A stretch of DNA of 64,000 nt from a virus. Lineage: Duplodnaviria > Caudoviricetes. The translations under genes and the position numbers were made by a program. Position 1 is the first letter of the stretch; every line of letters starts with the position of its first letter. Positions 3 to 25,216 of the stretch are shown here, in pieces. The stretch spans positions 1,662 to 65,661 of IMG/VR virus record IMGVR_UViG_2236876025_000005; one strand, written 5' to 3'. The notes under the pieces are model-generated. The model was given only the letters and a program-made list of their open reading frames with translations. It did no database searches and had not been told where the DNA came from.

Positions 3-302
3 TTAGATTAAGAATACGTTACTTGTCCTACTCAAACAAGCATAGAATTTACCGTCAGCCGAACGTTTGATAAATCCGTTCAAACCGTATGTACCTGTTG
101 ATACGGCGATAGTGTAACTGTTACGCAATAGTTCCTGCGCATTTTCGTAAGTAGTAATATCATAAGCACGCAAGGCTGTCGCCAAAGTAAAAAGTTGTTT
201 TGAGTTCAACTTTACGGAATCCCAACCCTCGCCGTCATTTACCAATTCCAACTCTTCGCTGTCCTTGATTTTCTTACTGTCCATTAGTTTCTTTAAGTTC
301 AT
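3..302 (-). CDS. hypothetical protein with N-terminal LMDSKKIKDS leader motif
   Basis: Complete 99-aa ORF; its N-terminus matches the x-D-S-[RK][RK]-[VI]-K-D motif of the polyproteins. Confidence 0.75.
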   Translation of the reverse strand: MNLKKLMDSKKIKDSEELELVNDGEGWDSVKLNSKQLFTLATALRAYDITTYENAQELLRNSYTIAVSTGTYGLNGFIKRSADGKFYACLSRTSNVFLI

Positions 303-5512: not shown

Positions 5513-6292
5513 TTAACCTCTGCGGCGAACAATGTTGCGGCTTACGCGGCTGTCAGCGGCGCGTCTTGCAGACGGGCGAACAGCGGCGCGGCGTGCGCGT
5601 GCGTCACGTACACGGCGAGCGGCGGCTAATGCGCGGCTACGACGTACTGCGCTGTCTTTCACGGCGGCGCGGCGTGCGAGTGCGCGACGTTTTGCAAAAC
5701 CGTCTTCCACACGTTTGCGGATGATAGCCAACTTACGGCTGTCAGCGACACCCTTGCGGCGTACGATAGCGCGGCGTCTAACCGAATCAGCAACCTCTTC
5801 GTCGTCAGCCTCAGGCTCGAAATCAGGCTCTGCCTCGCCTGCGTCCTCGCCTGCGTCCTCACCGCCGTCAGGCAGTAAGTCACCAATCACCTCGACAACA
5901 GCCGAAATAATGTCCTCGGCGGCGTTCAGAACCTCAGCAGGTGCGTTGTCAACCTCTTCGTTCAATACGCTCACAGCCGCATCGATAGCCTCTTCGCTTG
6001 TCTCAGTCTCGGCGAGTTCGTCCTTGATACGTTGACGGATGCGCATATACATTTTGCTTGCGCTGTCTTGTTTGCGTGTCAGTCCCTGTATGGCTGATGT
6101 ACGTTTCACCATACCTCGCGTTGCAGGACGTGCTGAATCGCTAACGCGGTTAATACTCGACGCAGTGCCGTTGCGTTTCACAGCCATACGGCGTTTTGCG
6201 TCCAAAATTCTCTTGTTTCGGGCAACTGCGCTGTCCGACACACGGTTGGCGTTATTCTTAACCTCTACCAACCCATTCAAAAAATCTGACAT
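5513..6292 (-). CDS. Arg/Ala-rich protein with about 10 [VI]xD(S) motifs; putative core/scaffold or DNA-condensing protein
   Basis: Repeats RVSDS (x2), ILDA, IKDE, VADS (x2), VEDG, VKDS, VRDA, AADS; basic ends with an acidic middle. Confidence 0.7.
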   Translation of the reverse strand: MSDFLNGLVEVKNNANRVSDSAVARNKRILDAKRRMAVKRNGTASSINRVSDSARPATRGMVKRTSAIQGLTRKQDSASKMYMRIRQRIKDELAETETSEEAIDAAVSVLNEEVDNAPAEVLNAAEDIISAVVEVIGDLLPDGGEDAGEDAGEAEPDFEPEADDEEVADSVRRRAIVRRKGVADSRKLAIIRKRVEDGFAKRRALARRAAVKDSAVRRSRALAAARRVRDARARRAAVRPSARRAADSRVSRNIVRRRG

Positions 6293-6350: not shown

Positions 6351-6923
6351 TTACAACTTAACAAAAAAATACGACAGACCTCGTTTTGTCTTGTACTTGT
6401 ACCCGTTTTTTTTCATTTTGTAGGCGAGTTCCAAATCGCGGTCGGGACGGTCAACGGTGATTTTTATCTTGTCACCCTTGAAACGCTCGATTTCCGCGTC
6501 CTCGATACAGTCACGTATCGGTTTCAGGTCATCGTCCTGACCCAAGTCAAGTTCGAGTTGCTGAGGACGCTCGCTTTTTCTCGGCTGTTCCGTTTCGTCC
6601 TGCGCCTGTTCCGCGTCCTCTGTCCGTTCGGGCTGTTCCTGCACCGTCGGCTCGTCAGGCTCAGGCTCGGGTGTCGGCTCAGGGTTCGCCTCGGGTTTCA
6701 TTTTTCCGTCAACGTAGGCAATAAGCGCACCGTTGTCTGTTATTTCAGGCGCGTTCTTAGTGCCTATGTACAGGCGCATAACCGTACTGTCATCCGCGTT
6801 GTACTTGCGCTGTGCGTAGTCTTTTATAAGCGTGTAAAGTTTGACCGATTTATTCGGCTCTTTCTTGATTCGGGTTGTCTCGCCTGACATTATCTGCGCC
6901 AAACCCATTGTAAAGTCACCCAT
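6351..6923 (-). CDS. hypothetical protein with P/E-rich linker
   Basis: 190-aa ORF downstream of portal. Confidence 0.7.
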   Translation of the reverse strand: MGDFTMGLAQIMSGETTRIKKEPNKSVKLYTLIKDYAQRKYNADDSTVMRLYIGTKNAPEITDNGALIAYVDGKMKPEANPEPTPEPEPDEPTVQEQPERTEDAEQAQDETEQPRKSERPQQLELDLGQDDDLKPIRDCIEDAEIERFKGDKIKITVDRPDRDLELAYKMKKNGYKYKTKRGLSYFFVKL

Positions 6924-7282: not shown

Positions 7283-8848
7283 TTACTCTGTTTGCGGTTC
7301 AAATGTTTCTATTTCAGGTGCGCCGCCACCGCCACCAAGTTCCTCGCCGCCGCCCAAGTCCTCACTTGTGAAATCAGGCTCGCCCAAATCGGGCAAACCG
7401 CCGCCACCGAGGTCTTCGCCGCCGCCCAAGCCGCCGCCTGAGCCGCCGCCCTCGACACCTGCCTCGCCGTTCAGTTCCTCACCGTTGTTCTGCGCCTGAC
7501 GCAGTTCCTCTAAGTAGTCGAGGAAATCGTTGTACCAATCCTGAATGACAGGCGACTTGATAGACGCGTTCACCAAGCCCAACAGTGACTTCAGCCTGTG
7601 TATCTTTTGCTCGATAGGCTCTTCGGGGTCGTCACCCATAACAAGACCCTCGATGTCAGACACAACCTCGGTATAGTTCGACATAGCCTGCAAAACGTCG
7701 TCGTCCTCTGAGGTCGGCAACTGAATCAGGCTGAACACGACGTTATACTTTTCGAGCGACTGTGTCCTCGATATGAACTCGTTGATAGTCTTTTCTATCA
7801 GGGTTCTGATTGAGTTGCACAGTTTGGCGTACCGCAAGTCCGAACGAATCATACTTGCCGCCGTGCTACCCATAGCCTGTGAGAAATCCATGTAGGTCGC
7901 AGGGAAACGGGTAATCAGGTTCAGTTTGTCAAGATAGTATTTCAGGTCGGGCAGTTCCTTTATGTCACCCTGAGGAACGTCGAGGTGCATTTGTGGCTCG
8001 CCTTTACTGTTGCGTGTCGGAATGATAGGAATATTGTCGTTGTATTCCTCGTTGTTCACCGACGTCAGGTTCATGGAATCAGCGTTTATCGCGGCTGAAA
8101 TAGTCTCGACAACGTCCTTTTGGGTGTCACCGTTAGACAGACCGACGTCAACAGTCGCATAACGTACGATTCTCGACAGTTGGGCGCGATAGCGTTTCAG
8201 GGCGTTCTCAATCAGGTTGAGCGCGTCCAAAGTCGATTTCGCGTTCTTGAACTGCATCGGGGTCGGCGTTATTTCAAACACGATGTCGTCCGTCAGGTCT
8301 TTGTTGTCCTCGGGGACTTCGAGCAACGAGTTCTTTTCATAATTTATGAAAATGATAACGTCCTCTAAGTTGCGTTTCTCCTTGTGAACCTCTGACATAT
8401 CGTAGGCGACGACCTGTTTGGTCTTTGTCAGGTAGAACTTCAGTTCTTTCAAGTTCGGCAACAGACAAATCTTTCCGTTGTCCTCGTCGAATGTCGCGTT
8501 GAACACTGACACGCCGACGAGTTGCAGGTCTTTCGACACCCAACGCACGACCGAGTTCAGTTCGTCCTTGAACGAATCGAGAACGGCTTGGTGCGCCTCA
8601 GGCAACTCTGTCTCGCCCTCGGGTAACTCGTAGTTGTATGACACGGGCGTCTCGCCACGGCAAACGTCGTCCGCCGTGATGTCACAGATAGCCTCGGCGT
8701 ACGGGTTCTGTGACAGGTCTTGCTCGGACGCGCCGCCGTTCGTTGTCGTAGAGGACGACGCGCCGTTGTAACCCTTGCGCCACGACGTACCCGTCGGGAT
8801 GCCCATTGCGGCTTTTATCGTTGAGAAAAAACCGTCAACGCTTACCAT
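7283..8848 (-). CDS. portal protein (T4 gp20-like)
   Basis: RIVRYATVDVG, IPIIPTR, DIKELPDLKYYLDKL..FP..YM and IRSDLRYAK align with T4-type portal motifs; Gly/Glu-rich tail; next to terminase. Confidence 0.8.
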   Translation of the reverse strand: MVSVDGFFSTIKAAMGIPTGTSWRKGYNGASSSTTTNGGASEQDLSQNPYAEAICDITADDVCRGETPVSYNYELPEGETELPEAHQAVLDSFKDELNSVVRWVSKDLQLVGVSVFNATFDEDNGKICLLPNLKELKFYLTKTKQVVAYDMSEVHKEKRNLEDVIIFINYEKNSLLEVPEDNKDLTDDIVFEITPTPMQFKNAKSTLDALNLIENALKRYRAQLSRIVRYATVDVGLSNGDTQKDVVETISAAINADSMNLTSVNNEEYNDNIPIIPTRNSKGEPQMHLDVPQGDIKELPDLKYYLDKLNLITRFPATYMDFSQAMGSTAASMIRSDLRYAKLCNSIRTLIEKTINEFISRTQSLEKYNVVFSLIQLPTSEDDDVLQAMSNYTEVVSDIEGLVMGDDPEEPIEQKIHRLKSLLGLVNASIKSPVIQDWYNDFLDYLEELRQAQNNGEELNGEAGVEGGGSGGGLGGGEDLGGGGLPDLGEPDFTSEDLGGGEELGGGGGAPEIETFEPQTE

Positions 8849-9440: not shown

Positions 9441-9956
9441 CTACTCGTTGTATATAAATTTGTTCATTAAATCAATAAGGTTGTCCCGTGTGATAGTGTA
9501 CGGAATAACTTTTAACCTCTCAAAAAATCTTATCATCCGTTCACGGTTGTTTTCAATAATAGTCTCAATATCAAAATCCCTCACGTCATAACCCTCGTCC
9601 TCAATCGCTTTTTCAAACCATACGTGTTTCTTTTTATAACTATATTCCTCGTAACGTTTACCCATACGAACCTCAATAAAATCAGTGTTGAACGCCTTGC
9701 GCTTTTTGGTTTGTGATTTGTTGTCATCTTTCAACTCTACGTCAAGTAATATGTCGTATATTTTTGTTACACATTCCGAACCCCAATGCTTTTGTAACTC
9801 AATATTGTCAAACAAACATATTTTTGCAAGATTCTCGAATATCTCACCCCAATTATTGAAACACAACGTAAGATACTTGTTGCGGTGAATCGCCATATCA
9901 TTTATCCGTTTCGTATCAATTACGGCTTGTAACTTTTTAAAATTCAAATTTTTCAT
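9441..9956 (-). CDS. AT-rich hypothetical protein (moron-like)
   Basis: 171 aa, own promoter at 9983 and terminator at 9385, visibly lower GC than its neighbours. Confidence 0.65.
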   Translation of the reverse strand: MKNLNFKKLQAVIDTKRINDMAIHRNKYLTLCFNNWGEIFENLAKICLFDNIELQKHWGSECVTKIYDILLDVELKDDNKSQTKKRKAFNTDFIEVRMGKRYEEYSYKKKHVWFEKAIEDEGYDVRDFDIETIIENNRERMIRFFERLKVIPYTITRDNLIDLMNKFIYNE

Positions 9957-10021: not shown

Positions 10022-11773
10022 CTACTGATACGCCAATTCCCTCAAAACCCGTTCGATTGTTTTTCCGCCTATCAGGTTCACCTTGTTAGACCCCTCGTAC
10101 AAGTCGGCTATCGAGCCGCCCGTCTTTCCGTACGTGTCGGACAGGAAAAACGCGCCGACGTTCGACTGTAACACGTCATCGGACGAGTTCTTAGCCTTGA
10201 CGACCCTGTGACGCTTGTAGTCGTGTACCGCCTCCTGAACCTCTTGTTCCAACAACGGGTCGGCGGTCTGCCTGATTCTACCCTCGACGAGACCGCGTTG
10301 CCAATGCAGATACGGTCGGTCGGTGCTGTCGAGCGATATTCGTATGTTTTCAAGACCCAATATGTCGAGTATTTCCTGACGCAACGATTCCGACTGATAT
10401 TGGTCGGACGCGAACGACACAAGGTTCACCAACTGCGATATGTCAACTATGAACTGTTGAACCTTGCTGATTTTCGTAGCGGCAGGATAGTGCGGCGGAA
10501 TGATTTTGAGACAGAACACCCGTGTATGCACGTCGAGGTTCTTTTCGTTGCGCCCGTCGTACCTGAAACAGGTGACACAGCCTCGGTCGCCTGCGGTTGA
10601 CAGGTCGAGGTAAATGCTGTGCGGTCGCTCGGGGAACTTCAGGTTTCTCTGTATGATATACTCGATAATCTGAGTGTCGTCCTCTGTTGACGCCTCGATA
10701 CTGTCCGTCGTGAACAGGGGGTCTTCGTTGGTCTCCGTGTAACTCTCGTACAGATACCTCAGGTTCGACATAAAAGACCCCTGAACCATCGTCGGGACGC
10801 CGCAATGGTTCTGAAGGGCTAACGCTATGTTAGCCTTGAAATTCTTTAACAGGTTGACGGGTACGAACCGTATGAACTTGTCCTCTTCGCCTGTTCCGAG
10901 AACACCGATAGCCTCAAACAGACGGGTGCGCTGTTCGTCCGATTCTATGATACAGGGTTCGGCTGAGCCTGAGCCTATGAACACCTCGAACTTCTCTGTC
11001 GCGTAACGCTCAGGCTTGACCTCGTAGCTGACGGACGTTATGCAGGTAGTCCAACGGTCGTCTTTGACAGCCTGTTTCCGTTTCTCGACAAAACTCGACT
11101 GATAGGACGCCGACGAAATAAGAATCGCGAGGGCGTTGACAGAACCGTCGGGGTTGCTGAAACGTGACACCAACCTGTCCATCAACTGATTGTAAAGCAA
11201 CGTGACTTCCTGATATTCCTCAGCCATACCCGTACCGACGCCGCCCGAGCGGAAATTCGCCTCGTCGAGAATGAACCCCCAAATGGACAGACCGATTTGG
11301 TGCGATTCCGTTGACGCGAAATCTATGTGAAACTTGTTCGGGAAACTGATACTTGACTTCAGACCCTTGTCAATCGGGAAATTCTCGTTGAACCACGCGC
11401 ACTCGTCGAATATGTTTCTCAGTTGCAAGAAACCTGACTTTTTCGCCATTTCAAGGCTGACGGAGAAATACAGACAGTATATTTCCGTATTCAGGGCGAG
11501 GTGCAATTGAGCCTGAGGCGAACCCTGAGCGAACAGGCGGTAAACGCGGTACGCAAAATAGTAGTTACTGAATGTGGTCTTACCGCCGCCGATTGAACCG
11601 TCGAGGATTATTTCGGACGTCAGGGGGTCTATCGTCATACCCTTGTTTATCCAATAGTCGTACAGGTCGCTGTTGTTGCAAAAGTTCGGGGACTTGACAA
11701 ATTCCTCGAAAGACACGAGGTTCACGTTGTTCAGAACCTCGTCGAGTATGTCAATTATGTTTTCCTTTTCCAT
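10022..11773 (-). CDS. terL: terminase large subunit
   Basis: Walker A LDGSIGGGKTT, Walker B FILDEANF, coupling motif LISSA, RNase H-like domain IYLDLS...SSDDVLQS; start MEKEN at 11773. Confidence 0.88.
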   Translation of the reverse strand: MEKENIIDILDEVLNNVNLVSFEEFVKSPNFCNNSDLYDYWINKGMTIDPLTSEIILDGSIGGGKTTFSNYYFAYRVYRLFAQGSPQAQLHLALNTEIYCLYFSVSLEMAKKSGFLQLRNIFDECAWFNENFPIDKGLKSSISFPNKFHIDFASTESHQIGLSIWGFILDEANFRSGGVGTGMAEEYQEVTLLYNQLMDRLVSRFSNPDGSVNALAILISSASYQSSFVEKRKQAVKDDRWTTCITSVSYEVKPERYATEKFEVFIGSGSAEPCIIESDEQRTRLFEAIGVLGTGEEDKFIRFVPVNLLKNFKANIALALQNHCGVPTMVQGSFMSNLRYLYESYTETNEDPLFTTDSIEASTEDDTQIIEYIIQRNLKFPERPHSIYLDLSTAGDRGCVTCFRYDGRNEKNLDVHTRVFCLKIIPPHYPAATKISKVQQFIVDISQLVNLVSFASDQYQSESLRQEILDILGLENIRISLDSTDRPYLHWQRGLVEGRIRQTADPLLEQEVQEAVHDYKRHRVVKAKNSSDDVLQSNVGAFFLSDTYGKTGGSIADLYEGSNKVNLIGGKTIERVLRELAYQ

Positions 11774-11794
11774 TCGTTGTTGTCTTTGTTTCCG

Positions 11795-11802
11795 CAAAGA
11801 TA
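11795..11802 (-). promoter_or_regulatory. Bacteroidota -7 promoter box (terminase)
   Basis: CAAAGATA. Confidence 0.65.
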
Positions 11803-11806
11803 ATAA

Positions 11807-11982
11807 AACGCAGGGAACGGTACAAGTCTGTGTTGTCCGTCCCCCGAATCGCCTTTCAACTGTGAATGCGAACACAAACGGGGCTTTGACAACCCCGTCG
11901 GCTCGGTTTCCCGATTGTACCTTTTAACGTGCAGTACAGAGGGCGTACCCCCTGAGTGCGCGGCGCACCTTAACGACGCGTT
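11807..11982 (-). ncRNA. candidate structured ncRNA, family unknown
   Basis: Own promoter at 11984; nested stems; UACG and GAAA tetraloops. Confidence 0.45.
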
Positions 11983-11993: not shown

Positions 11994-12022
11994 AAAAAAA
12001 CGACACCCGTATTCCGATGTCG
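11994..12022 (-). terminator. intrinsic terminator
   Basis: Minus strand: CGACATC-GGAATACG-GGTGTCG-T7. Confidence 0.75.
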
Positions 12023-12210
12023 TCCTTCCGCCCTACGTTGCGGCACGCGCTACGCCGTGTTGCCAATAACTACTTGCAATTAACGGGTTCTGCACCTTGC
12101 GGTGGTCGTGTGTTACGATTCGCACGTCTGCGACCTGTATCGTTAAAACGGGACGCCTGTTGTGACGCCCCGTCTCTCTCTTGCGATGGATTTATGAAAA
12201 ATTGAAATTG

Positions 12211-13965
12211 TTATTCAACATAATCATAAAGTTCGACATCAACGTCAAACCCTAAACTTTCAACCCATTCCTCAACAGAACTTTTAATGGTATTCCAAGA
12301 ACTACCATAAACAATTCCCCAAACAGCAACCGATTCACCCTCACCTACTCTGTCCATCCATTCAAAATCTTGCGATTCACACCATTCGCCACCTTGTGAA
12401 AACTGTTTGTACTCAATAGCGTTTTTAATTTCGTTGGCGTATTTGCGCCCCTCGGCGTTAGACATAGATTCACCACCAATAACAGAAACAACAACCTCGG
12501 CGACTTCCTCGTTATCCTCACTGTCTTTCACGCGACGAGCGGAATCTTTCATACGCTCGAAATACAGACCGTTGCGCCCACTCAGTTCTCTCTCTGATAC
12601 CGATACGCCTCGTCCTGAAAAGTGTTTTTTAAATCTGTCTCTGTTGTTTCTAAAAAACTCGCCGTTTTCGGGATTCGATTGGTCGTAAGGGTAAAACACG
12701 TCCGCGTAAGCGTCAATACCCTTTTGAATTTCACCTGTCACGTCGTCAAATCTGTCGTCTTTCACGCGGCGAGCGGAATCACCTATTTGGTCATCAGGAT
12801 ACTCTTCAATAGTCAAATCGTCGATAGCACTACTTACCTTTGCCAAACAACCCTCAACAGTGTGGTCTTTTACATAACCCCAAGGCGCACCCTGTGTTGC
12901 TGATAAATAATCAAACATATTTTGGTTATACTCGTCAAAGAATTTTACATTCACCTCAATAGGAGCGTTCTCGTTAAGAACCCTGTTGATATTGTAAACA
13001 TAGAAAAATATTTCAAAGGCAGAACCGTCGGCTGTCTCAAACGGTATGCTTACACTGAAATCGTCACCGTTCTCGCCGCCGTCAACAAAGGTTGTTATGT
13101 CGTCACCGTCATAACCGTAATAGAAATCAGTATAACTCAACATTTCCAACGTTCTGTCCTTACATTCCTGAATCATAGAAACACATTCGTTTCTAATGTC
13201 GTCAGACACGTTACTGTCCTTCACGCGACGGCTGTCAGCAACCTCGTCTTCGTCGCTTTCCTCGTAGAACTCGGCAGGCTTGTCAGTCGGTTCGCCGTCA
13301 AAGTTCTCGCCGCGCAGGACGTGAACGCCGCCACCTTGCGCAGTCGCGTCAACATAATAGTCACCGCACCAATCAATATAGTCGTAAACGTCGTCAAACT
13401 CCTTGTAATCAACACTTTTCATTTCTTCTTCGATATTAGGATTATCAAAGAAATAATCCTCAACAAAATAAGTATTATCACCATTCTTGTCCAAAGCGGC
13501 AACTAAACTTTCAAGCGTCACCTCTGACCATTCTCTCGGCGCGTAACACAGAACTCTGTCAAGTCCATAACCGCTACCGCTCCAAAGAACAAATTTCCAC
13601 AGTGTATCGTTTTCTGCATCAGGTTCGTTTAATGGCTTACAGCCCATAAACCACTCGTCAGGCAAACCCTGATTGTCTCTTATTCGTCTCATAGTATTAT
13701 GTTTTTTATTAGAATCCGATACCAATTGAAAGTTTCTCATTTCACCTTTCGTCAGGGCGATTTTGTTATAACTCTTGTAACCGCCGCCCGTCTCATAGTC
13801 GTCGTCAGCCTCAAAGAAACGTGTTGGTTTGTCAGTTTGTATTAAAACAGTAGAACCGTATTCGTCCTCACTAACTCTTGTGACAGTGCCACGCACCTTG
13901 ACACCATCGACAGTACCCTCGACTTTCTTTCCAATCAAAGATTCGCCTATTTGTGATAAATCCAT
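12211..13965 (-). CDS. modular polyprotein A (5 modules, 4 linkers)
   Basis: Linkers VSDS..MRRIRD, VADSRRVKD, IGDSARRVKD, MKDSARRVKD. Confidence 0.8.
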   Translation of the reverse strand: MDLSQIGESLIGKKVEGTVDGVKVRGTVTRVSEDEYGSTVLIQTDKPTRFFEADDDYETGGGYKSYNKIALTKGEMRNFQLVSDSNKKHNTMRRIRDNQGLPDEWFMGCKPLNEPDAENDTLWKFVLWSGSGYGLDRVLCYAPREWSEVTLESLVAALDKNGDNTYFVEDYFFDNPNIEEEMKSVDYKEFDDVYDYIDWCGDYYVDATAQGGGVHVLRGENFDGEPTDKPAEFYEESDEDEVADSRRVKDSNVSDDIRNECVSMIQECKDRTLEMLSYTDFYYGYDGDDITTFVDGGENGDDFSVSIPFETADGSAFEIFFYVYNINRVLNENAPIEVNVKFFDEYNQNMFDYLSATQGAPWGYVKDHTVEGCLAKVSSAIDDLTIEEYPDDQIGDSARRVKDDRFDDVTGEIQKGIDAYADVFYPYDQSNPENGEFFRNNRDRFKKHFSGRGVSVSERELSGRNGLYFERMKDSARRVKDSEDNEEVAEVVVSVIGGESMSNAEGRKYANEIKNAIEYKQFSQGGEWCESQDFEWMDRVGEGESVAVWGIVYGSSWNTIKSSVEEWVESLGFDVDVELYDYVE

Positions 13966-13984
13966 AGTTTTATATTTTTAAAAT

Positions 13985-14347
13985 TCAATCACAAATATAG
14001 ACAATATCTTTCAGGTTTGAAATTAAATTCTCAATAAATTCATTCTCACCTATGTCGTCACCTAACAATAGGTCAACCTGTTTCAGATACGTTTGGGTTA
14101 TCACGACACTACGTAACGCGTCCTTCAACTTGTCGATTGTTTCCTCGGAATAATCGTTGTAATTGAACGGGGCAATGTTGTAATCGGTTTCGTTCACGAA
14201 CACATCGTCCTTACCTGTATGGTCGCGATTCCAACAACGTTTATCCCACGCGCCCAATTTGTCAAACGGAATCGGTTTCCTGTTGTTGTCGATGACCGAT
14301 TGTATTCGTTCGATTTGTTCGGTCAAATCCCTTATCAGTTCGTTCAT
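13985..14347 (-). CDS. hypothetical protein
   Basis: 120 aa, ATGA-coupled to RNase H. Confidence 0.7.
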   Translation of the reverse strand: MNELIRDLTEQIERIQSVIDNNRKPIPFDKLGAWDKRCWNRDHTGKDDVFVNETDYNIAPFNYNDYSEETIDKLKDALRSVVITQTYLKQVDLLLGDDIGENEFIENLISNLKDIVYICD

Positions 14348-14775
14348 TTTTTATATTTTTTAAATTCTTCGTTCAAATCCGTTCCTGCGGCGGTGTTGCA
14401 CATTTCGTCGCATATTTCATTGTATCGGTCGCCGTTGTGTCCCTTGACCCACCTGTACTCGATTCTCGGCTGTTTCTGTGACAGCACCCTGTCCCAAACC
14501 TCGAACAGGTCTTGGTTCTTGTTCCGCGCCCATTCACCGCTCAACGTGTTCAGGGCATACTTGGAATCGGATATGACCGTCACGTCAGCATTCTGTTCGG
14601 GCAGATGGTAAACGGCTGTTATTATCGCTTTCAGTTCGGCACGGTTGTTCGTCTCGTTCTCGATTTTCCACGCGCCTTTCCTGACCGTGTTACCGTTCCC
14701 GTCCAACATCACGTACGCGAACGCCCCGACGTTCCGTTTGTTGGAATAACCGCCGTCTGTGTATATCGTGTACAT
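14344..14775 (-). CDS. rnhA: ribonuclease HI
   Basis: IYTDG, TNNRAEL, ISDSKY, WVKGH, NEICD; all four acidic catalytic residues present. Confidence 0.93.
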   Translation of the reverse strand: MYTIYTDGGYSNKRNVGAFAYVMLDGNGNTVRKGAWKIENETNNRAELKAIITAVYHLPEQNADVTVISDSKYALNTLSGEWARNKNQDLFEVWDRVLSQKQPRIEYRWVKGHNGDRYNEICDEMCNTAAGTDLNEEFKKYKK

Positions 14776-14779
14776 ACGT

Positions 14780-15064
14780 TCAGTTTTTAGGCGTGAACTT
14801 TATTGTTGCGCCACGTTTCGCCTCGTCGGTCAGGACGGTGCAGAACGTCTCTGTCAGGGACACGATGTCCGCGTCGGCGTTTCCTGCCTGACGTGACATT
14901 TCCGTCGCCATAGCGAGGACGTTCAGGGTTGAATGCAATACGACGGGAAACCAATTCACACCGCTGTTTTCAAGTTTGGCGAATATTGTTTCCGTCAGGT
15001 CGTTGATTTGACTGTTGACGAGTTTCAGTTCCTCGTCCGACATCTTTTTAAAAACTGTCTTCAT
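14780..15064 (-). CDS. hypothetical protein
   Basis: 94-aa ORF after the promoter at 15094. Confidence 0.7.
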   Translation of the reverse strand: MKTVFKKMSDEELKLVNSQINDLTETIFAKLENSGVNWFPVVLHSTLNVLAMATEMSRQAGNADADIVSLTETFCTVLTDEAKRGATIKFTPKN

Positions 15065-15093
15065 CGTTGTTACTGTTTTATTCGTTCAGGGGA

Positions 15094-15118
15094 CAAATAT
15101 AATAATCTTTTTATTACA
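15094..15118 (-). promoter_or_regulatory. -7 promoter box with palindromic operator
   Basis: CAAATATA plus TATAATAA-TCTTT-TTATTACA. Confidence 0.65.
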
Positions 15119-15125
15119 GACAAAC

Positions 15126-15162
15126 AAAAAAATACAGGGAACATTTTACCGTCCCCTGTATT
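15126..15162 (-). terminator. intrinsic terminator
   Basis: TACAGGG/CCCTGTA stem with T7 on -. Confidence 0.7.
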
Positions 15163-15218
15163 CACTAACTGACATTAAATCAAAATGTATGCAATGTTTA
15201 CAAAAACGTGTTACCGTA

Positions 15219-17543
15219 TCAATTTTCCCAAATTGGACGACCGTTTATATAAATTTTCCATACCAACCCTTTTACCGTAATAAAACCGTCGGTATAGTTG
15301 TCAACATCAAACTCATCAACAACAAAATCGCCCTTGTCAAACTTGTTTACAATTTCAACGTGATACCTGTCCTCGCCGTATTTGTTTTTACCAATCGTTG
15401 TAAAATAAGCAACCGTTCCGTATTCGTCCTTTATCCGACGTGAATCCGCAACGTCCTGTTTCTCGTTCTCAGGCTCGTTTTCGGTTTCCTCGTTTTTGTT
15501 GCGGCGTTTCGCACGGACACGCTCGGCGTACGCTTTCCAACGTATCGGTTTCGTCATATCGTTGACACGGCTGTCGGAAACCGAGTGCGCTTTTTCGTAT
15601 TCGTCATAAGCCTGATATGCCTGTTTGAGCATTTTTTCCAAATTGACTTCCTGTCTCATTTTTTCAAAACTCTCATCAACCTCTTTATCACGCTGTCTTT
15701 TCCCCTTACGCAAATAAGACTGACGCTGTGCGCACCATTTTTTAAACTCATCCAAAGTGCTTATGCCTTTTTTAGCAAGCCAACCCCTTGCAATATCCGC
15801 CGATATATTCAAATAATGCTCGGCTTGCAAAGCCGCCATTTCCCTGTCGCTGTAACCTTTTAGGATTTCGTCCATACCTTGTAATAACGTTTTTTCGTCC
15901 GTTGCAGGCTGTATTCCGAAATACTCATAAAAACTTTCGTTGTCCTCCCATTCGTCCTTGATTTTCCGAGAATCACTGACCGCCTCTTTCATTTCGTCGC
16001 TCGCCTCAAATTCGAGGTCGGCTACGTTCTTAGCGATACCCCACTCTTTGAGCAACGCCTTGACGAAAGCGTTGGCGTCGGCTGTCGCGGCGCACAGGTC
16101 AATCATGGCGACACCGTCCTGACTGTCTGTCTCGTAGGTCTCATACTGAACACCGTCGATTTTACCCGATTCGTTCTTATGTTTGTTAACCTCGGCAATC
16201 ATTTCGTCTTCTGTACCATCCTCGAAAGCGACAAACAGAACACCGTCGAGAACATCGGGGGTGTTTTCGTCTTTGATTTTACGTGAATCGGAAATGTCGT
16301 ACATATAAACCTCTGTAATTGATTGAAACTCCATTTCGTCATCACCAACAACGCTTTTACAAACAACAGTGCCATCAAGGACATTGTGTTTCATAACCAC
16401 CCAATCTCTATCTTGTAAATTAAAATATCGCCCTATTGGTATTGTACCTAAATAAGCCTTTCGCATTTTTGCGTCCTTGATTTTACGGGAATCGGAAACG
16501 GTATTCAAAGATTTTAGTTCGTTTACAGCGAGCCTGTGCGCTCTTTCAAGGGCTTTGATATACAGTTGAACAATATAATTGTTATCGTTGAAATAACGGT
16601 CAACCCTTGAAAGTGCGTTACCAACCCTGAATTTAATATCCTCACAACATTCCTCGACAGCGGCGTTGTCGTGTGTGTCGAATTTGGCAACAACAAGGTC
16701 GCTCAGGTCTTCTAATATAAAACCATTCCATTTCACCAACTCGTCAATAATATCGAACGCCGCGTTAGAATTAAACGAGGGGTCGTTTTCTCTAAACCCC
16801 TTGAAATGATACGGGGTCAACGGACAACGTTCAGCACTCGCCCACGAACTAAAATCCTCAATCAAACCTTTTTGAGACGAATCGTCGTCCTTAACACGAC
16901 GTGAATCGGAAACCTGCCTGTCTGTGACACTTACAATATCCTCAATAATACCATTATTGCACGATAATTCTATTTTTATTTCAGGTGACATAATCAATAA
17001 ATTACCATTTTCTCTTGTAAACCCAAACTTGCTGTTGATAAAAACATCGTTCAGGTTTTCTCGTAAGTCCTCAATATTTTTCCCTATATAATTTTCTACA
17101 AATCTATAAACGGATTTAGAATTGGGTTTATCGTAAATAATACGGGAATTTTTTTGATAGTCAGGCGATTCAATTACGTCAATATCATATCCGTCACGAA
17201 CCCGTCTCTTTGAATCGAGAATCTGTTTGTTGTGAACCCTGATGTTCTTACCCCAAGCGGCTTTCGTTTGGTTCGCCAATTTGATAACGTCGCGTTCCAA
17301 CGATTCCAAAGACACTTTCGGATTCTTTTCAAGGAACGTTTCAGCGTCCATTGTCGATTTAGAACCTGTATTCCAACTCTGTGTCCCCCACAGCGAATTA
17401 CGCTGAATCGAGAACGTGTTATGGTTCGGGGTGCTGAATACGGCGCACTCGTTACCGTTCCTGTCCAACTTTGTACCGTGAAAGCGCAGGTTCGAGTTCT
17501 CACACTGTACGTACTCACTGTTACTGTCTTTTACTCGTTTCAT
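15219..17543 (-). CDS. modular polyprotein B (8 modules, 7 internal linkers plus N-terminal MKRVKD)
   Basis: ILDSKRRVRD, VSDSRRVKD, VSDSRKIKD, ISDSRKIKD, VSDSRKIKD, VSDSRVND, VADSRRIKD. Confidence 0.85.
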   Translation of the reverse strand: MKRVKDSNSEYVQCENSNLRFHGTKLDRNGNECAVFSTPNHNTFSIQRNSLWGTQSWNTGSKSTMDAETFLEKNPKVSLESLERDVIKLANQTKAAWGKNIRVHNKQILDSKRRVRDGYDIDVIESPDYQKNSRIIYDKPNSKSVYRFVENYIGKNIEDLRENLNDVFINSKFGFTRENGNLLIMSPEIKIELSCNNGIIEDIVSVTDRQVSDSRRVKDDDSSQKGLIEDFSSWASAERCPLTPYHFKGFRENDPSFNSNAAFDIIDELVKWNGFILEDLSDLVVAKFDTHDNAAVEECCEDIKFRVGNALSRVDRYFNDNNYIVQLYIKALERAHRLAVNELKSLNTVSDSRKIKDAKMRKAYLGTIPIGRYFNLQDRDWVVMKHNVLDGTVVCKSVVGDDEMEFQSITEVYMYDISDSRKIKDENTPDVLDGVLFVAFEDGTEDEMIAEVNKHKNESGKIDGVQYETYETDSQDGVAMIDLCAATADANAFVKALLKEWGIAKNVADLEFEASDEMKEAVSDSRKIKDEWEDNESFYEYFGIQPATDEKTLLQGMDEILKGYSDREMAALQAEHYLNISADIARGWLAKKGISTLDEFKKWCAQRQSYLRKGKRQRDKEVDESFEKMRQEVNLEKMLKQAYQAYDEYEKAHSVSDSRVNDMTKPIRWKAYAERVRAKRRNKNEETENEPENEKQDVADSRRIKDEYGTVAYFTTIGKNKYGEDRYHVEIVNKFDKGDFVVDEFDVDNYTDGFITVKGLVWKIYINGRPIWEN

Positions 17544-17558
17544 ATTCTTGTTGTTTTA

Positions 17559-17867
17559 TTAATACAAATCGTGTAACCAACCCTGCTCTTGAAAATACAG
17601 GCACATATTTTCAAACTCGTCGTCGTTTTGAAACAACCATTGTCCCATTAAATAAATGTCAATATTGTCCCACATATCAAGTGTCTGACCGAATTGTTTT
17701 TCGTACAAATCGGTATAAACAGTCTCGACGTATGTTTGAAAATCGTCAAAACCCCCGTCAAAACTGTTTATCAAATCTTGCAACCGTTTTTCGGCTTTGC
17801 GTGACACGAAACCGTGCGACAGTTTAACAAGGGTGTCAAAATTGTTCACACTAACCGCGTAATTCAT
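17559..17867 (-). CDS. hypothetical acidic/aromatic protein
   Basis: 102-aa ORF between polyproteins. Confidence 0.7.
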   Translation of the reverse strand: MNYAVSVNNFDTLVKLSHGFVSRKAEKRLQDLINSFDGGFDDFQTYVETVYTDLYEKQFGQTLDMWDNIDIYLMGQWLFQNDDEFENMCLYFQEQGWLHDLY

Positions 17868-17868
17868 A

Positions 17869-19929
17869 TCATTCAGCCTTTTTTGTTTGACGTTTGGTTA
17901 TTTTCACCTTTTTCACGGCGTCTGCGGTCTTCTTGGCTTTCTTTTTGCCTTTCTTTCCGCAACCGTCTGTGACCTCGGCGTCGTCGAGGTCTGAATCAGC
18001 CTGCTCGATATTCACGTCGTCCTCGGAATCCGACACTTTCAGGCTCGCGACCTGATTGTACGGCACTTCGAACTCTTCTGAGCCGTCCTCGTTCTGCCAA
18101 CGGATAATCACAGGTTGCTGACCGTGGAACAGGGCGTACTGCACCGTTCCGCGCTTGCCCTTGTACTCGATTTCCTCACCTCGCGCGAGCATACGGGCGT
18201 CGTCGATAGCCTGCAAGCCGCGACGGAATCGTATGTACGAATCGCGTATTTCCTTTCCGTTCTGTTTCAGTTCAGCCTCAGACGGTAACGAATCCACGAT
18301 TGTAAGATTGTAACCGACGTAATTCGCCAATTCGTCCTTCAATTCGTTGTATTGTTTGCTATCGGCGGTTTTAAGGGTGTTGGCGTAATCGTATGTGCAA
18401 ACCCCGTGTTGCCCGTTGTGCGAATAACATACCATTGTGTCTTGGTCGCGGTTCGCCGTTCCGTATGTGTTCGGGAACACAGCAAGTACGTCGGAATCCT
18501 CAATCAGGAATACGACGTCCTCTTTGATTTTACCCTCTGAATCGGTGACACGGCGGTAAGCCTGCAAGTTTTTCAGGTCTTTGCTGAAATATTTTGCTTT
18601 CGCGTCGGCGATTCGTGAGCCGATTGAACCCTTACGGGTGCGGCTGTCGGATATTCCCATTGCCTCTCCTAATATTTCTGAATTTTCTCTTGTGTCACCG
18701 TTTGCCCTTGCTGTCTGTATAACAAGTTCGGATAATTTGCTACCATGCAACCCTGTGTTTCTTTTTGCGTTTTGAATTTCGTCTTCCGAAATACCTTGTT
18801 CCCTTAACCATTTCATTTGGTTTTGGTTGAATCGCTCTGCGTTGGCAAAGATTCTTTCCATATTCCTGTTATACCTCTCACTTCTCGTAAGTCCGTCCTT
18901 TACACGACGGCGCGAATCGGAAACGTAATCCTTGTTTGAAATTTCGTACACAACTTCGGTTTCGCCGTAAATATCACCATCTTCGGTTTCGTATTCACCT
19001 GCCAACACCCAACCCACAATTTCGTTCGGGTCATTATTATACGATTCCATTTCACGTTCCAAATCGTCAATCGCCTCGTCCAAATCGTAATATTCGTGTG
19101 ACAAACTCATCGGGGTAATGTCAAATTCCTCGGTGTCGTTGTAAATTTCAACAACGTAAATTTCGCTGTCATTATCATTTATTCGTTTCATATTATTGTG
19201 TTTTAGATTGTTACTATCATCAATATAAATCTTGTAACCCTCGAAATAGTAGTTTTTATAAAAACCCTTGTTGTTCAACGCGAAAACGTCCTTCTTGTAT
19301 TTGCGACCCGTTACTTCGTCGTAACTGTAAAAATCGGCATACGCCCAAACCTCGTAATCACAATCCGCGTATTTTTTTATTACCTCGTGCGCTTTGTCAA
19401 GCGGCAATTGACGACCCTCTTTGGTGTAGGGAATTTCGTATGTTTCCAATACAGTATTGTCACCCCCCCGTTTCCCGTATTTGGTTTCAACTGTCAATAT
19501 AAAATATTTTTCCATACCAATATTTTTTAATTGTTTACTATCTGATACTGTCTCAAACTCTTCAAGTTCCTTAGACGAATATTTAACCTTGCGCATTTCG
19601 TTTTGCAGGTCGTCCAAAAAATAACACCAATTATCGTACTCTGTCTTGTACTCGTCACCCAAATCATACTCAGGATAATCGCCTGAGTAGAATTTTCCAA
19701 AATCATCGGGGTATATGTGCGACAAGTCCCAAAACAGGTCTTCAGTCAAACCCTTTACGAACTGAAATTTCAAATCGTACAATTTACCTGAATCGGTCTT
19801 TTTTGTGAGTTTAAACTTCCAATTGTGACTACTTATGTAATTACGCAAGTCGCTCACTGACACTCTGTAATTGTAATCAACGGCAACAGCCTTGAAAACC
19901 TCTAATATTACGTCACTTGAAACATTCAT
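17869..19929 (-). CDS. modular polyprotein C (about 7 modules) with basic C-terminal tail
   Basis: Linkers VSDSKQLK, IDDS..MKRIND, VSDSRRRVKD, ISDSRTRK..IAD, VTDSEGKIKE, IRDS, VSDS. Confidence 0.8.
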   Translation of the reverse strand: MNVSSDVILEVFKAVAVDYNYRVSVSDLRNYISSHNWKFKLTKKTDSGKLYDLKFQFVKGLTEDLFWDLSHIYPDDFGKFYSGDYPEYDLGDEYKTEYDNWCYFLDDLQNEMRKVKYSSKELEEFETVSDSKQLKNIGMEKYFILTVETKYGKRGGDNTVLETYEIPYTKEGRQLPLDKAHEVIKKYADCDYEVWAYADFYSYDEVTGRKYKKDVFALNNKGFYKNYYFEGYKIYIDDSNNLKHNNMKRINDNDSEIYVVEIYNDTEEFDITPMSLSHEYYDLDEAIDDLEREMESYNNDPNEIVGWVLAGEYETEDGDIYGETEVVYEISNKDYVSDSRRRVKDGLTRSERYNRNMERIFANAERFNQNQMKWLREQGISEDEIQNAKRNTGLHGSKLSELVIQTARANGDTRENSEILGEAMGISDSRTRKGSIGSRIADAKAKYFSKDLKNLQAYRRVTDSEGKIKEDVVFLIEDSDVLAVFPNTYGTANRDQDTMVCYSHNGQHGVCTYDYANTLKTADSKQYNELKDELANYVGYNLTIVDSLPSEAELKQNGKEIRDSYIRFRRGLQAIDDARMLARGEEIEYKGKRGTVQYALFHGQQPVIIRWQNEDGSEEFEVPYNQVASLKVSDSEDDVNIEQADSDLDDAEVTDGCGKKGKKKAKKTADAVKKVKITKRQTKKAE

Positions 19930-19939
19930 ATCTGATTAT

Positions 19940-21124
19940 TTATCTTTCATTTGGTTGTTTGTATCTTTCACCCAACACCCTATAAATAGTCTGTTCGTCA
20001 GGTGTGTTCACAAGGTTGCCTGCCGAATCGAACAGTCCGTTCTCAACGAGCCTGTAACCCTTTTTCTTTGCACAGTCCCTCAGGCGCATATTTTCCTCTT
20101 TCGACCCTGTCGTACTCAACAGGTGTGTCGCCATCTGCCCGTCGGCGGCTCGTATAAGCACCACAGGGACGTTATCGTAATAGCCCCTGATAATCGAACT
20201 GTCTGCGACCATTTTCGCGAACCTCGCGCCGTCTATGCTGTTTTCGATAGTCTTGAACTCGGAATCCGAACACTCGACCACAATCGGCAACGACGTCACA
20301 GTCTCACAGCCTCTGCGGTATTCGCCCGACACAGCCCATTTGTGACCGTCAAGGACACGTTTCAGGCTGTCGGCTACCAACTCGCACTCGCGGCGTGTAT
20401 GATTCTCGACACGCGCCGCCAACTCGCTGTCGGCGACCTTGCCTTTCAGCATATCGAGGTGCTTGCACGCGCCACGGAAATAGTAGCCCTGACAGGTGCA
20501 ACCCCAATGGTCTTTCACTTTGATAAGACGGTAAGTCGCGTCACCGTCTTTTGAAACAGTGTACTGACTGTCACTGATTCTTGTAAGTTTGTAGTTGTCG
20601 CTCATTCTGTTGTTGTTTTTGTTACTGTCACCTATGACCTTTTCCTCGTCCTCTTTTTTCGCGTCGTCGTCCTTCTCGGCGATATAGACAGAACCCTCGT
20701 CGTCCTTTCCGACTATTTCGGTGTCGGTGTTCTCGTCAAGGTACTGTTTCGCGTTGGCGAGGTTTTCCTTTTTGTACTTTTTCGTCAGGACAGGCTCGCC
20801 GTTCTCTGATTCCATCAGGACGAACTCTTCGTCGTCCGCGTCAGATATGTGACGGTTGGAATATTCCTGATACAGGTCAAGAACCCTGTTGTACGTCGCA
20901 CTGTCCTTTGTCTTACGGTACTGCGCTATCGCCGACTTCAGGTTGGTGTACAGGGCGGAATCGGAAAACGCGTTTTCGAGCGTTTCCTTTGACTTATGCT
21001 TGCGACCCACGTAAAACCCTTTCCGATAGTTGTTGTTATCGGATTTCAGGTCGTGCTTTGGGTCACGCGTCGCGCCCAACTGCTTGCCTAACTTGTAGTC
21101 GTCCAACTCTGCGATTTTAGACAT
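19940..21124 (-). CDS. modular protein D: N-terminal modules, SWIM finger and degenerate DNA polymerase X (palm/thumb)
   Basis: WGCTCQG...ACKH; GEYRRGCETVTSLP (PolX GSxRRGxETVGDID); TTGSKEENMRLR..AKKKGYRLVENGLF..DEQTIYRVLG..Y..PNER. Confidence 0.8.
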   Translation of the reverse strand: MSKIAELDDYKLGKQLGATRDPKHDLKSDNNNYRKGFYVGRKHKSKETLENAFSDSALYTNLKSAIAQYRKTKDSATYNRVLDLYQEYSNRHISDADDEEFVLMESENGEPVLTKKYKKENLANAKQYLDENTDTEIVGKDDEGSVYIAEKDDDAKKEDEEKVIGDSNKNNNRMSDNYKLTRISDSQYTVSKDGDATYRLIKVKDHWGCTCQGYYFRGACKHLDMLKGKVADSELAARVENHTRRECELVADSLKRVLDGHKWAVSGEYRRGCETVTSLPIVVECSDSEFKTIENSIDGARFAKMVADSSIIRGYYDNVPVVLIRAADGQMATHLLSTTGSKEENMRLRDCAKKKGYRLVENGLFDSAGNLVNTPDEQTIYRVLGERYKQPNER

Positions 21125-23530: not shown

Positions 23531-23928
23531 AGTTTTATTCTTTTGTCTTGAATCAATTTTGACAGTAATTGTATGACCGCCCCGACAGCCGACGGGTCGT
23601 GAAAGACGAGGTACGTGTCGTCACTCTCCCATTCGGCGTACCAATCGTCGTTCGTCTGTTCCGTCGCAATGTCCGTTCCGCAACGCGTCAGGGTGAACAC
23701 GGGCGCGTTGTCTCCCGTCGGGAACAATTCAACCAACGCGTTCAGAGACCAACACGGCGTGTAACCGTCCATTTGTTTTGCCTCGTCCGCGTCATAGTGC
23801 AACACCGTGTTATAACCGTCACGGAACGGTCTGTGGTGCATATCCGCCGTGTTCGGGTCAACACCCAATCTTACGAGTGATTCCGATTGTCCCAACGACG
23901 TGTAACCGTTTTTGTTATCGTGTCCCAT
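23527..23928 (-). CDS. hypothetical protein
   Basis: Likely start MGHD at 23928. Confidence 0.65.
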   Translation of the reverse strand: MGHDNKNGYTSLGQSESLVRLGVDPNTADMHHRPFRDGYNTVLHYDADEAKQMDGYTPCWSLNALVELFPTGDNAPVFTLTRCGTDIATEQTNDDWYAEWESDDTYLVFHDPSAVGAVIQLLSKLIQDKRIKL

Positions 23929-23930
23929 AA

Positions 23931-24233
23931 CTATAATTTTTTTATCTTGTCCTTTATTATGTCGCTCCTGTATTCCATGACTGTTTGCAGTATCGCGCAA
24001 CGCCGCGCCTCAGCCAAGCCTGACTTCAGGTCGTCGATGTCCTTGAACACCGTTTCTCGCGAATGGTAGAAATCGTTGTTTTCGTGTCCGTCACCGAGTT
24101 TGAAATTCAGAATAACGTACCCCTCGCCTGACACCCATTTTTTCCATTGTATCGTCAGTTCGTAGCCGTCCCATTTCCCGTACACACGGTTTCTCGCGCG
24201 TCGGCGCAACCGCCTCAACAATCGTGTTTTCAC
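23931..24233 (-). CDS. hypothetical protein (MKTRLLRRLRRR N-terminus)
   Basis: Coupled 100-aa ORF. Confidence 0.65.
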   Translation of the reverse strand: MKTRLLRRLRRRARNRVYGKWDGYELTIQWKKWVSGEGYVILNFKLGDGHENNDFYHSRETVFKDIDDLKSGLAEARRCAILQTVMEYRSDIIKDKIKKL

Positions 24234-25216
24234 AACTCACTAAGTATATGTTTCAGATATTCAGCTATTTTCACAAGTTCAGGCGCAAACCCCTGAACGT
24301 CACCCCTGCACAGTCTCTGCACGACACTGAACGTATTGTGCTTGTAGTTGTCAGGATTCTCAAAGAACCTGCACAGTTCAGTCAGGGTTTCAAGGTATGA
24401 ATCGACAACCTCGTCAGGCTTGTTGTTAAAAGCCTCGCGGCGTTTGCGCGAAACCTCGTCCGTCGTTGAGTTCTCAATCAGCGTCCAAAGCAAGTGTTCG
24501 GCGACCTTGCGGCTCAGTTTGTCGATACGTTTTTCCTGTAACGCGTCGTATTCCTCTTTGGTGATTCGTTTCCACCCACCTTTGCCGTCGTCCGTTTTGT
24601 ACACATTCAGGTCGATTCTGTCGCCGTCAGGCGTAATGACGTACAACAGCGCACGCGTGTCAAAATCACCGTTCTTACGGTCGGTCAGGAACGTCTGTGT
24701 GTATATCTCATATCTACCCTTTTTCGGCATATACGGCATTGTAATCGGGAACATTTCGTCGATTATTCTGTCATCACCTGAACTGAACGTGTCCGACGGC
24801 TGTTCCACGTCAACCATAATACAACGGTCAATATCGTGATATGTGACTTTTCCGTCGAGTGTTTCCTCGCGGAACAGTGACGACATACGCGGACACTGCA
24901 AACTCGATTTCAAACCACGTTTCGCCAAATATTCGGACGGTTCTAATTCGCAAATACCGTTGCTGTTTTCAAAGAAAAAGTCCTTGTCCTCAATCGGTGT
25001 CAGGGGGTGTCCCTCCATCAGCCGAATCAGAATGTTTTTCGTGAACCCGAACGACGAACCGCTGTGTCCGTCATCCATCAGGCTCTTGTACGCTTTCAAC
25101 GCGCTTTTGTAACACGAACACCCATAATCAAAATCGTCACTGTCAAAATCGAAATTAGGATTCTCTTTGCCGCAGGCGATACGGCACTCTCTTTCCGCCC
25201 AATCTTTCATACTCAT
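24230..25216 (-). CDS. conserved-type phage hypothetical protein
   Basis: 328 aa; CYKSALKAY..L..DGHSG.S.G.T..IL.RL....PLTPIED motif. Confidence 0.75.
   Translation of the reverse strand: MSMKDWAERECRIACGKENPNFDFDSDDFDYGCSCYKSALKAYKSLMDDGHSGSSFGFTKNILIRLMEGHPLTPIEDKDFFFENSNGICELEPSEYLAKRGLKSSLQCPRMSSLFREETLDGKVTYHDIDRCIMVDVEQPSDTFSSGDDRIIDEMFPITMPYMPKKGRYEIYTQTFLTDRKNGDFDTRALLYVITPDGDRIDLNVYKTDDGKGGWKRITKEEYDALQEKRIDKLSRKVAEHLLWTLIENSTTDEVSRKRREAFNNKPDEVVDSYLETLTELCRFFENPDNYKHNTFSVVQRLCRGDVQGFAPELVKIAEYLKHILSEL

Follow-up and report, generated by a model that had tools for sequence, protein, structure and literature searches.

Putative cargo polyproteins with Asp-Ser linkers, candidate substrates of an S77 prohead protease, in an uncultured bovine-gut phage

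The internal head proteins of phage T4 (IPI, IPII, IPIII and Alt) carry an N-terminal capsid-targeting sequence that is removed by the prohead protease gp21, a member of MEROPS/Pfam family S77. gp21 has a motif-conforming site of its own at LIE-9 and is also processed at its C-terminus; Glu is the residue after which the proteases of T4, phiKZ, 201phi2-1 and SPN3US all cut, and the T4 leader is not processed when Asp takes its place at P1, directly before the cut (PMC9026906). Here we describe four large open reading frames (ORFs) at positions 12,211 to 21,124 of a 64,000-nucleotide stretch of DNA, the window, which comprises positions 1,662 to 65,661 of IMG/VR record IMGVR_UViG_2236876025_000005. 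The source is a bovine-gut metagenome, and the phage is uncultured. The ORFs appear to be chains of unrelated modules, most of them joined by forms of one short peptide, [VI]-x-D-S-[RK]-[RK]-[VI]-K-D. From sequence comparison, we put at roughly 60% the probability that they are cargo polyproteins, cut after Asp at the linkers by the S77 prohead protease of this lineage, with the products carried in the capsid.

Two other groups of described proteins stand close to this locus. In phiKZ, 201phi2-1 and SPN3US, whose enzymes (gp175/gp245) are diverged homologues of gp21, a short motif directs the cutting of many head proteins, and a propeptide has several redundant copies of it, much as would be the case here; in SPN3US, Ser is preferred directly after the cut, at P1' (PMC10052503, PMC9026906). 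Those enzymes, however, cut after Glu and mainly trim the N-terminal propeptides of single proteins, not the unrelated modules of a chain. Polyvalent proteins (Iyer, Burroughs, Anand, de Souza and Aravind 2017, PMC5512222) resemble the present ORFs in being mosaic chains of several unrelated modules, encoded near portal and terminase genes and subject to shuffling; it is predicted that they accompany the DNA, and peptidases have been proposed to release their domains. No conserved motif between domains, whether as linker or as cut site, is described there ("linker" has 0 occurrences). Polyvalent proteins, moreover, with 2-15 domains each, contain embedded peptidases and recognisable enzymes, their repertoire including zincin MPTase, ARTs, anti-restriction domains, nucleases and Pol-beta NTases, whereas in the chains described here no peptidase domain and almost no known domain was found, and their cutter would be a separately encoded capsid protease. 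In our literature searches we met no account of a phage polyprotein whose modules are separated by cut-site linkers, nor a paper in which "polyprotein" and "prohead protease" occur together.

A preliminary description, made from the letters of the window without database searches, had reported four ORFs built of unrelated modules. All four lie on the minus strand, with the lengths it gave:

15219..17543, minus strand: polyprotein P0001, 774 residues, eight modules and seven linkers, starting MKRVKD
12211..13965, minus strand: polyprotein P0002, 584 residues, about five acidic modules, three canonical linkers and one long linker
17869..19929, minus strand: polyprotein P0003, 686 residues, one canonical linker, long linkers and a Lys-rich C-terminal tail; modules replaced in relative L072
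19940..21124, minus strand: P0004, 394 residues, SWIM finger and PolX-like thumb/palm, one long linker and otherwise only bare xDS tetrapeptides; the least convincing of the four

The linker positions that we derived by translation coincide with those first listed, seven in P0001, four in P0002 and the copy at 18895 in P0003. They are given here with the long linkers and with the variant breakpoints, by sequencing run, that are taken up below:

17193..17222, minus strand: ILDSKRRVRD, residues 108-117 of P0001
16887..16913, minus strand: VSDSRRVKD, P0001
16473..16499, minus strand: VSDSRKIKD, P0001
16269..16295, minus strand: ISDSRKIKD, P0001; variant breakpoint at 16264 (runs X6 and X8)
15954..15980, minus strand: VSDSRKIKD, P0001; variant breakpoint at 15951 (run X8)
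15558..15581, minus strand: short linker VSDSRVND, then M, P0001
15426..15452, minus strand: VADSRRIKD, P0001; variant breakpoint at 15435 (run X8)
13675..13722, minus strand: long linker VSDS-NKKHNT-MRRIRD, P0002; variant breakpoint at 13689
13216..13242, minus strand: VADSRRVKD, P0002
12757..12786, minus strand: IGDSARRVKD, P0002; breakpoint at 12771 in three runs
12523..12552, minus strand: MKDSARRVKD, P0002
18895..18924, minus strand: VSDSRRRVKD, P0003
19174..19224, minus strand: long linker IDDS-NNLKHNN-MKRIND, P0003
19513-19548 and 20597-20635: further long linkers, the latter in P0004

The idea that one linker runs through all four ORFs holds for P0001 to P0003 but not for P0004, which has no canonical copy; it has one long variant (IGDSNKNNNRMSD) and several bare VADS or xSDS tetrapeptides, some of them inside the PolX-like region. 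Looser copies are present as had been noted, but several of them (for example 13675-13722 and 19174-19224) belong to a distinct long form, in which xDS is followed by an Asn/Lys-rich spacer, Met and the half-linker [KR]RI[KRN]D. The DNA of a long linker (AAT AAA AAA CAT AAT ACT ATG) resembles the usual stop/A-rich/ATG gene junctions of this genome, and the long linkers might mark places where genes fused after losing a stop, or be internal starts still in use; no convincing stand-alone gene ending in [VI]xDS, as expected of fusion scars, was found. The N-terminus of P0001, MKRVKD, corresponds to Met plus the second half of the linker. At the other end of P0003 (window 17869-17960, minus strand) stands a Lys-rich tail, GKKGKKKAKK...KRQTKKAE, which is kept in the L072 homologue; a DNA-binding end of this kind would fit an internal head protein.

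The tetrapeptide [VI]xDS occurs 27 times in the four polyproteins, against 2.0 +/- 1.4 expected from residue shuffles (maximum 9 in 500), and 10 times in five other head-module or leader proteins, against 0.6 expected from shuffles. The remaining 16,000 or so residues show no enrichment, with 14 occurrences observed and 9.1 expected. When the window is scanned in six frames, the full motif is found solely in the frames of minus-strand genes, and a looser pattern adds one plus-strand match at 23584. Eight strict nine-residue copies, six from polyproteins and two from the leaders of small proteins, have a mean pairwise identity of 62% in DNA and 69% in protein, and their invariant Ser is encoded by TCA (three times), AGC (twice), AGT, TCC and TCT. 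Because these codons mix TCN with AGY, selection acts on the peptide, in agreement with the earlier observation that the linker is conserved as peptide and not as DNA; the same codon diversity rules out a DNA-level element, such as a repeat or a recoding signal, as its cause.

Homologues of P0001 vary in the number and order of their modules, but all 26 keep the linker. The logo built from 85 nine-residue copies reads [V60/I22]-[S/N/A]-D85-S85-[R64/K8]-[K58/R26]-[I47/V38]-[K61/S/R/N]-D85, and an N-terminus of the form M[KR][RQ][VI][KR]D begins 16 of 29 polyproteins. Splitting the proteins at their linkers yields cassettes of fixed length (96-98, 35, 59-60, 76 and 124 residues), which follow one another as D. 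J E A K B L in P0001 and as D J A M F B. and G H A K. in two homologues. Within this phage the modules show no BLAST similarity to one another, which agrees with their first description as mutually unrelated. A limited search for stand-alone module homologues found none among the window's proteins or the relatives' loci examined.

Comparison of near-identical sequences places the changes at the linkers. The L072 homologue of P0003 is near-identical up to ...SDS, continues into different modules and rejoins P0003 further on. Parts of this phage are also present in four other bovine-gut runs, from four different studies (no RNA run was listed among those holding it), where contigs skip or replace segments; 10 of 11 variant joint ends lie at most 10 nucleotides from a linker or gene end, against 1.2 expected, a count reached in 0 of 20,000 random trials. 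In run X5, the module between the linker at 12757..12786 and the previous linker is deleted, leaving a hybrid linker that reads VADS. The linkers thus also act as cassette junctions, as it is precisely there that modules are gained, lost and swapped.

An AlphaFold2 model of P0001, made from the family alignment, shows confident domains at residues 172-210, 262-345, 364-408, 422-519 and 536-616, and the predicted local distance difference test score (pLDDT) has a local minimum at every linker. For module A, folded together with both flanking linkers, pLDDT is 84-93 in the core and 37-43 in the linkers. The check for folded modules with disordered linkers, proposed at the outset, thus came out positive in these models of P0001 and module A, where the linkers are predicted as low-confidence coil between confident domains and not inside folds. 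Three quarters of the modules are acidic (median isoelectric point 4.7), and the linker is basic. With the whole P0001 model as query, a fold search found nothing at E <= 0.001, and module A gave generic ferredoxin-like matches only, at Z 7-8, a fold too generic for a function to be inferred. In Pfam and PHROGs, P0001 had no match and P0002 and P0003 next to none, the N-terminus of P0002 having a near-threshold match to DUF7258. P0004 matches the PolX thumb and, weakly, the palm in Pfam, and a PHROGs zinc-finger family over a SWIM-like CxC...CxH motif. No peptidase family matched P0001-P0004 at E <= 0.1.

The same site marks other proteins of the contig. A search of its other head-module proteins for the motif, a check that the preliminary description had proposed, was positive, both in leaders and in a 259-residue protein:

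3..302, minus strand: stand-alone protein of 99 residues with N-terminal leader MNLKKLMDSKKIKD
genome 1333-1650, just outside the window (locus L001): 105-residue paralog of the 99-residue protein, with the same kind of leader (MNLKRLMDSKRIKD)
genome 117-1352, outside the window (locus L001): 411-residue protein at the contig start, with a leader ...RVKDSRRISD and two internal linkers
9441..9956, minus strand: 171-residue protein between terminase and portal, with leader MKNLNFKKLQAVIDTKRIND
5513..6292, minus strand: 259-residue Arg-rich protein of the head module, with six [VA]xDS and further [VI]xD sites

To judge from its linkers, the 411-residue protein is a fifth chain, of three modules. 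A leader of the MNLKKL type is found on four proteins here and on two in L002, and the upstream polyproteins bear MKRVKD only. The 259-residue protein has basic, Arg-rich ends and an acidic centre; if cut at its sites, it would give short Arg-rich peptides, and it is a candidate core, scaffold or DNA-condensing protein.

The contig stops short of the protease and capsid genes, and an S77 protease and a gp23-like gene are expected just past its start. Both are found in relatives. A terminase alignment led to IMG/VR relatives at 40-45% identity whose head modules contain Peptidase_S77 and Gp23 proteins, and a gp21-like S77 protease with its Ser and His motifs is therefore present in the lineage, in these relatives, though not on this contig. 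A profile of the close relatives' proteases matches T4 gp21 (PDB 5JBL); GVSSRG falls opposite GVASRG, and EHP at the His position. Among the 120 S77 homologues listed, [KR][VI]xD-S occurs near residues 12-18, and [KR]V[TS]D-S and L[RK]D-S occur near the C-terminus; the Asp-Ser pairs near both termini are invariant in six aligned relatives. All seven distinct gp23-like capsid proteins carry [RK][VIF]xD-S in their N-terminal propeptide region, between about residues 10 and 30, and all seven have a second site, xxxD-[SA], 11-20 residues ahead of the conserved GP[YFW][IV] core. In a relative (L071) whose terminase (P0027) is 82% identical to that of this phage, a single 17-kb contig encodes a polyprotein tail with linkers, terminase, portal, an 85-residue MRGINDS protein, S77 protease and capsid protein. 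Further S77 proteins are tied to contigs bearing close terminase or polyprotein homologues, contigs being equated by matching length. The earlier suggestion of an Asp-specific analogue of T4 processing thus gains a protease family in the lineage and [VI]xD-S at positions like those processed in T4, and is supported to that extent, through relatives.

Distant relatives with complete genomes (134.5 and 142 kb) have a simpler RVxDS site, which clusters in the capsid protein, in the protease and in a small number of large proteins rich in such sites. In the 142-kb genome (G002), proteins of 1224 and 878 residues (L062 12342-16016 and L066 4597-7233) contain 10 and 8 [VILM]xDS sites, mostly RVxDS or KVSDS and including a doubled IGVSDSARVSDSE; they are possible polyproteins with a simpler linker, and Pfam gave no match for the large site-rich proteins of this genome. 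Another relative (L005, terminase 42% identical) encodes three tandem paralogs of 153-154 residues at 13875-15293, directly after the portal gene, all of which begin M..VCKRGVKV[VI]DS..K....[RK]VKD[SA], the same two-site leader. In a 181-kb relative (G004, locus L051, terminase 31% identical), the S77 protease is Glu-rich (KFEEVESS) where the Asp-type clade has F[KR]VxDS, which hints that the P1 residue may differ between protease clades.

The genome around the ORFs bears on when and where their products could be made. The IMG/VR record (G000) is a single contig of 65,661 bp. P0001 is also borne on a contig of 141,489 bp found elsewhere, and relatives have 135-190 kb, from which it follows that the record holds under half of the phage genome; it is a fragment of a phage of about 141 kb, with about 76 kb beyond it. 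All genes of the contig are on one strand. Read along the minus strand, accessory genes (including a Tad3-like one) are followed by the polyprotein operons, terminase, a gp20-type portal, small head-module genes and the contig end, so that the polyprotein genes do lie directly upstream of terminase and then portal, as first described. They form two operons, each with its own terminator and separate from the terminase gene:

10022..11875, minus strand: large terminase subunit; homologues have about 582 residues, which makes it probable that translation begins downstream of the called GVG-frame start
7283..8848, minus strand: portal protein of T4 type (gp20)
15130..15163, minus strand: terminator-like hairpin, 14 pairs and a T run, just 3' of the P0001 stop
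11994..12029, minus strand: terminator-like hairpin 3' of the P0002 stop, upstream of the terminase gene

Several other genes deserve mention. The N-terminal 138 residues of the protein encoded at window 24230-25216 (minus strand) match Pfam Tad3, a Thoeris inhibitor, at E 5e-21, which puts an anti-defence gene a few kb upstream of the polyprotein operons. A protein of 1825 residues (47733-53210, minus strand) has 13 BspA-type leucine-rich repeat stretches (E 7e-207); such repeats are typical of gut Bacteroidota proteins and their phages, and the protein is possibly a receptor-binding or surface protein. The 297-residue protein at 732-1625 (minus strand) is a homologue of a protein of about 160-185 residues that relatives keep next to their portal or protease (motif KLLSEKQFLQVQ), and weak Hint-domain matches at its residues 100-144 would fit an intein insertion. 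A 190-residue ORF downstream of the portal (6351-6923) was considered as the protease and rejected, having no family match and no S77 features; a search of 1.84 billion representatives gave a single homologue of it. The contig of one close relative had been binned with a metagenome-assembled genome of Paludibacteraceae, a weak hint of the host. Neither the region (megablast) nor P0001 (tblastn) matched any of 50,697 phage records, and cultured relatives of the terminase are only about 25% identical. A single terminase sequence used as query found no match in a viral contig scan, and a metagenome scan with alignment A4 found two loci only.

The scheme that we propose takes the ORFs to be chains of small, mostly acidic modules, which would fold independently and be joined by the disordered basic linker. 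The S77 prohead protease would cut [VI]-x-D-S between Asp and Ser, and probably also after the second [VI]-K-D. Double cutting would release the modules together with a basic hexapeptide, and the N-terminal MKRVKD would be the same hexapeptide with Met replacing Ser. By analogy with T4 internal proteins, cutting would take place in the prohead, leaving the modules in the capsid to be delivered with the DNA. We infer the cut, the enzyme, single or double cutting, packaging, injection and an effector role from the comparisons given above.

The likeness to T4 extends to the gp20 portal of this phage and to the S77 protease and gp23-like capsid protein of its relatives. A motif with hydrophobic P3 and acidic P1 is common to capsid protein, protease and (putative) cargo in both cases; both have short N-terminal leaders on small, diverse proteins, and a cargo set that varies among related phages (PMC3012670, PMC9026906). 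In contrast to the Glu of (L/I)-x-E in T4, P1 is Asp here, in all 85 linkers as well as in the protease and capsid sites, and the first site always has Ser at P1'. The modules, too, are mostly acidic rather than basic. The predicted cargo comes in chains of 584-774 residues with up to eight modules and a bipartite nine-residue linker, whereas T4 has one leader per gene. The assemblin of herpesviruses, which belongs to a related protease fold class, has sites of the form (V/L/I)-x-A-S, cut between Ala and Ser, and so shares the pattern of a hydrophobic residue at P3, a small or acidic one at P1, and Ser at P1'; it differs in belonging to another virus realm, in having Ala rather than Asp at P1 and in having no cargo polyproteins. 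The Asp-Ser rule would be a new specificity within S77.

Several points weigh against this scheme. The link to the protease runs through relatives, as the contig does not reach the protease and capsid genes of this phage itself. The S77 enzymes known so far are specific for Glu, and in T4 an Asp blocks processing, so that a change of specificity must be assumed. No T4-like targeting sequence is recognisable on the upstream polyproteins beyond MKRVKD. Their operons adjoin an accessory, anti-defence-like region with the Tad3-like gene, and expression could be early, before that of a late protease. Bare VADS inside the PolX-like region of P0004 implies that the tetrapeptide by itself would be insufficient for cutting. 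Finally, prohead proteases can also cut cytoplasmic proteins (PMC12991175), and cleavage need not therefore mean packaging.

That last observation, of prohead proteases cutting non-capsid proteins in infected cells, opens the way to an alternative in which the phage protease cuts the linkers in the cytoplasm. The polyprotein would then be an expression device, yielding many small proteins per ORF that are neither packaged nor injected. The placement of the polyprotein genes in operons of their own beside accessory genes would suit such a device, as would the lack of a clear capsid-targeting sequence in P0001-P0004. We nevertheless judge it unlikely. The S77 enzyme of T4 forms part of the prohead core, and the phage substrates known for it are head proteins (PMC9026906); here, proteins of the head module bear the same site, as do leader-bearing small proteins encoded between portal and protease; and products released late in the cytoplasm would come too late for the same infection.

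Disorder at the linkers fits a flexible tether equally well, and a basic peptide between acidic modules might serve to bind scaffold, portal or DNA in proteins that act whole, as is supposed of many polyvalent proteins, and are never cut at the linker. Some polyvalent proteins, such as the N4 virion RNA polymerase, are indeed packaged unprocessed (PMC5512222). We consider this improbable, because a tether has no need for an invariant Asp-Ser with Val or Ile two residues before, repeated twice. The tetrapeptide is moreover conserved at the protease termini and ahead of the capsid-protein core, where the T4 homologues are cut, and the N-terminal half-linkers (MKRVKD) have nothing to tether. Over half of the genome lies outside the contig, and another protease, from the host or encoded in the missing 76 kb or so, might read the site, its presence in head proteins being secondary, but this is very improbable, because the S77 protease has conserved sites near its two termini, which parallel gp21 self-processing, and because neither the polyproteins nor those large window ORFs that were scanned showed a peptidase domain.

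Cutting by the lineage's prohead protease and carriage in the capsid remain the reading that we prefer, and it can be extended, tentatively, to the history of the lineage. In this fuller version, which we would not yet favour, a gut/rumen phage lineage of about 135-190 kb would have re-tuned its S77 protease from Glu to Asp-Ser and built on that change a plug-and-play cargo flanked by linkers. The modules would be co-translated, loaded into the prohead, excised on both sides with the hexapeptide shed, and injected; the linker would double as the junction at which modules are traded, and the long linkers would be recent gene-capture scars or active internal starts.

If the preferred reading is true, proteins delivered by the capsid can be organised as expandable polyproteins that are read by the capsid's own maturation protease. 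Such an arrangement would be a compact route for diversifying injected proteins, probably including factors for counter-defence or takeover. Within S77, specificity would be expected to have shifted from Glu to Asp-Ser. Host sensors of prohead-protease activity, as in the cyclic oligonucleotide-based antiphage signalling system (CBASS, PMC12991175), make the specificity of this protease a likely target of selection. The linker would also allow proteins carried in the capsids of uncultured phages to be recognised from sequence, and would offer a natural rule for designing foreign proteins that are to be packed into phage heads.

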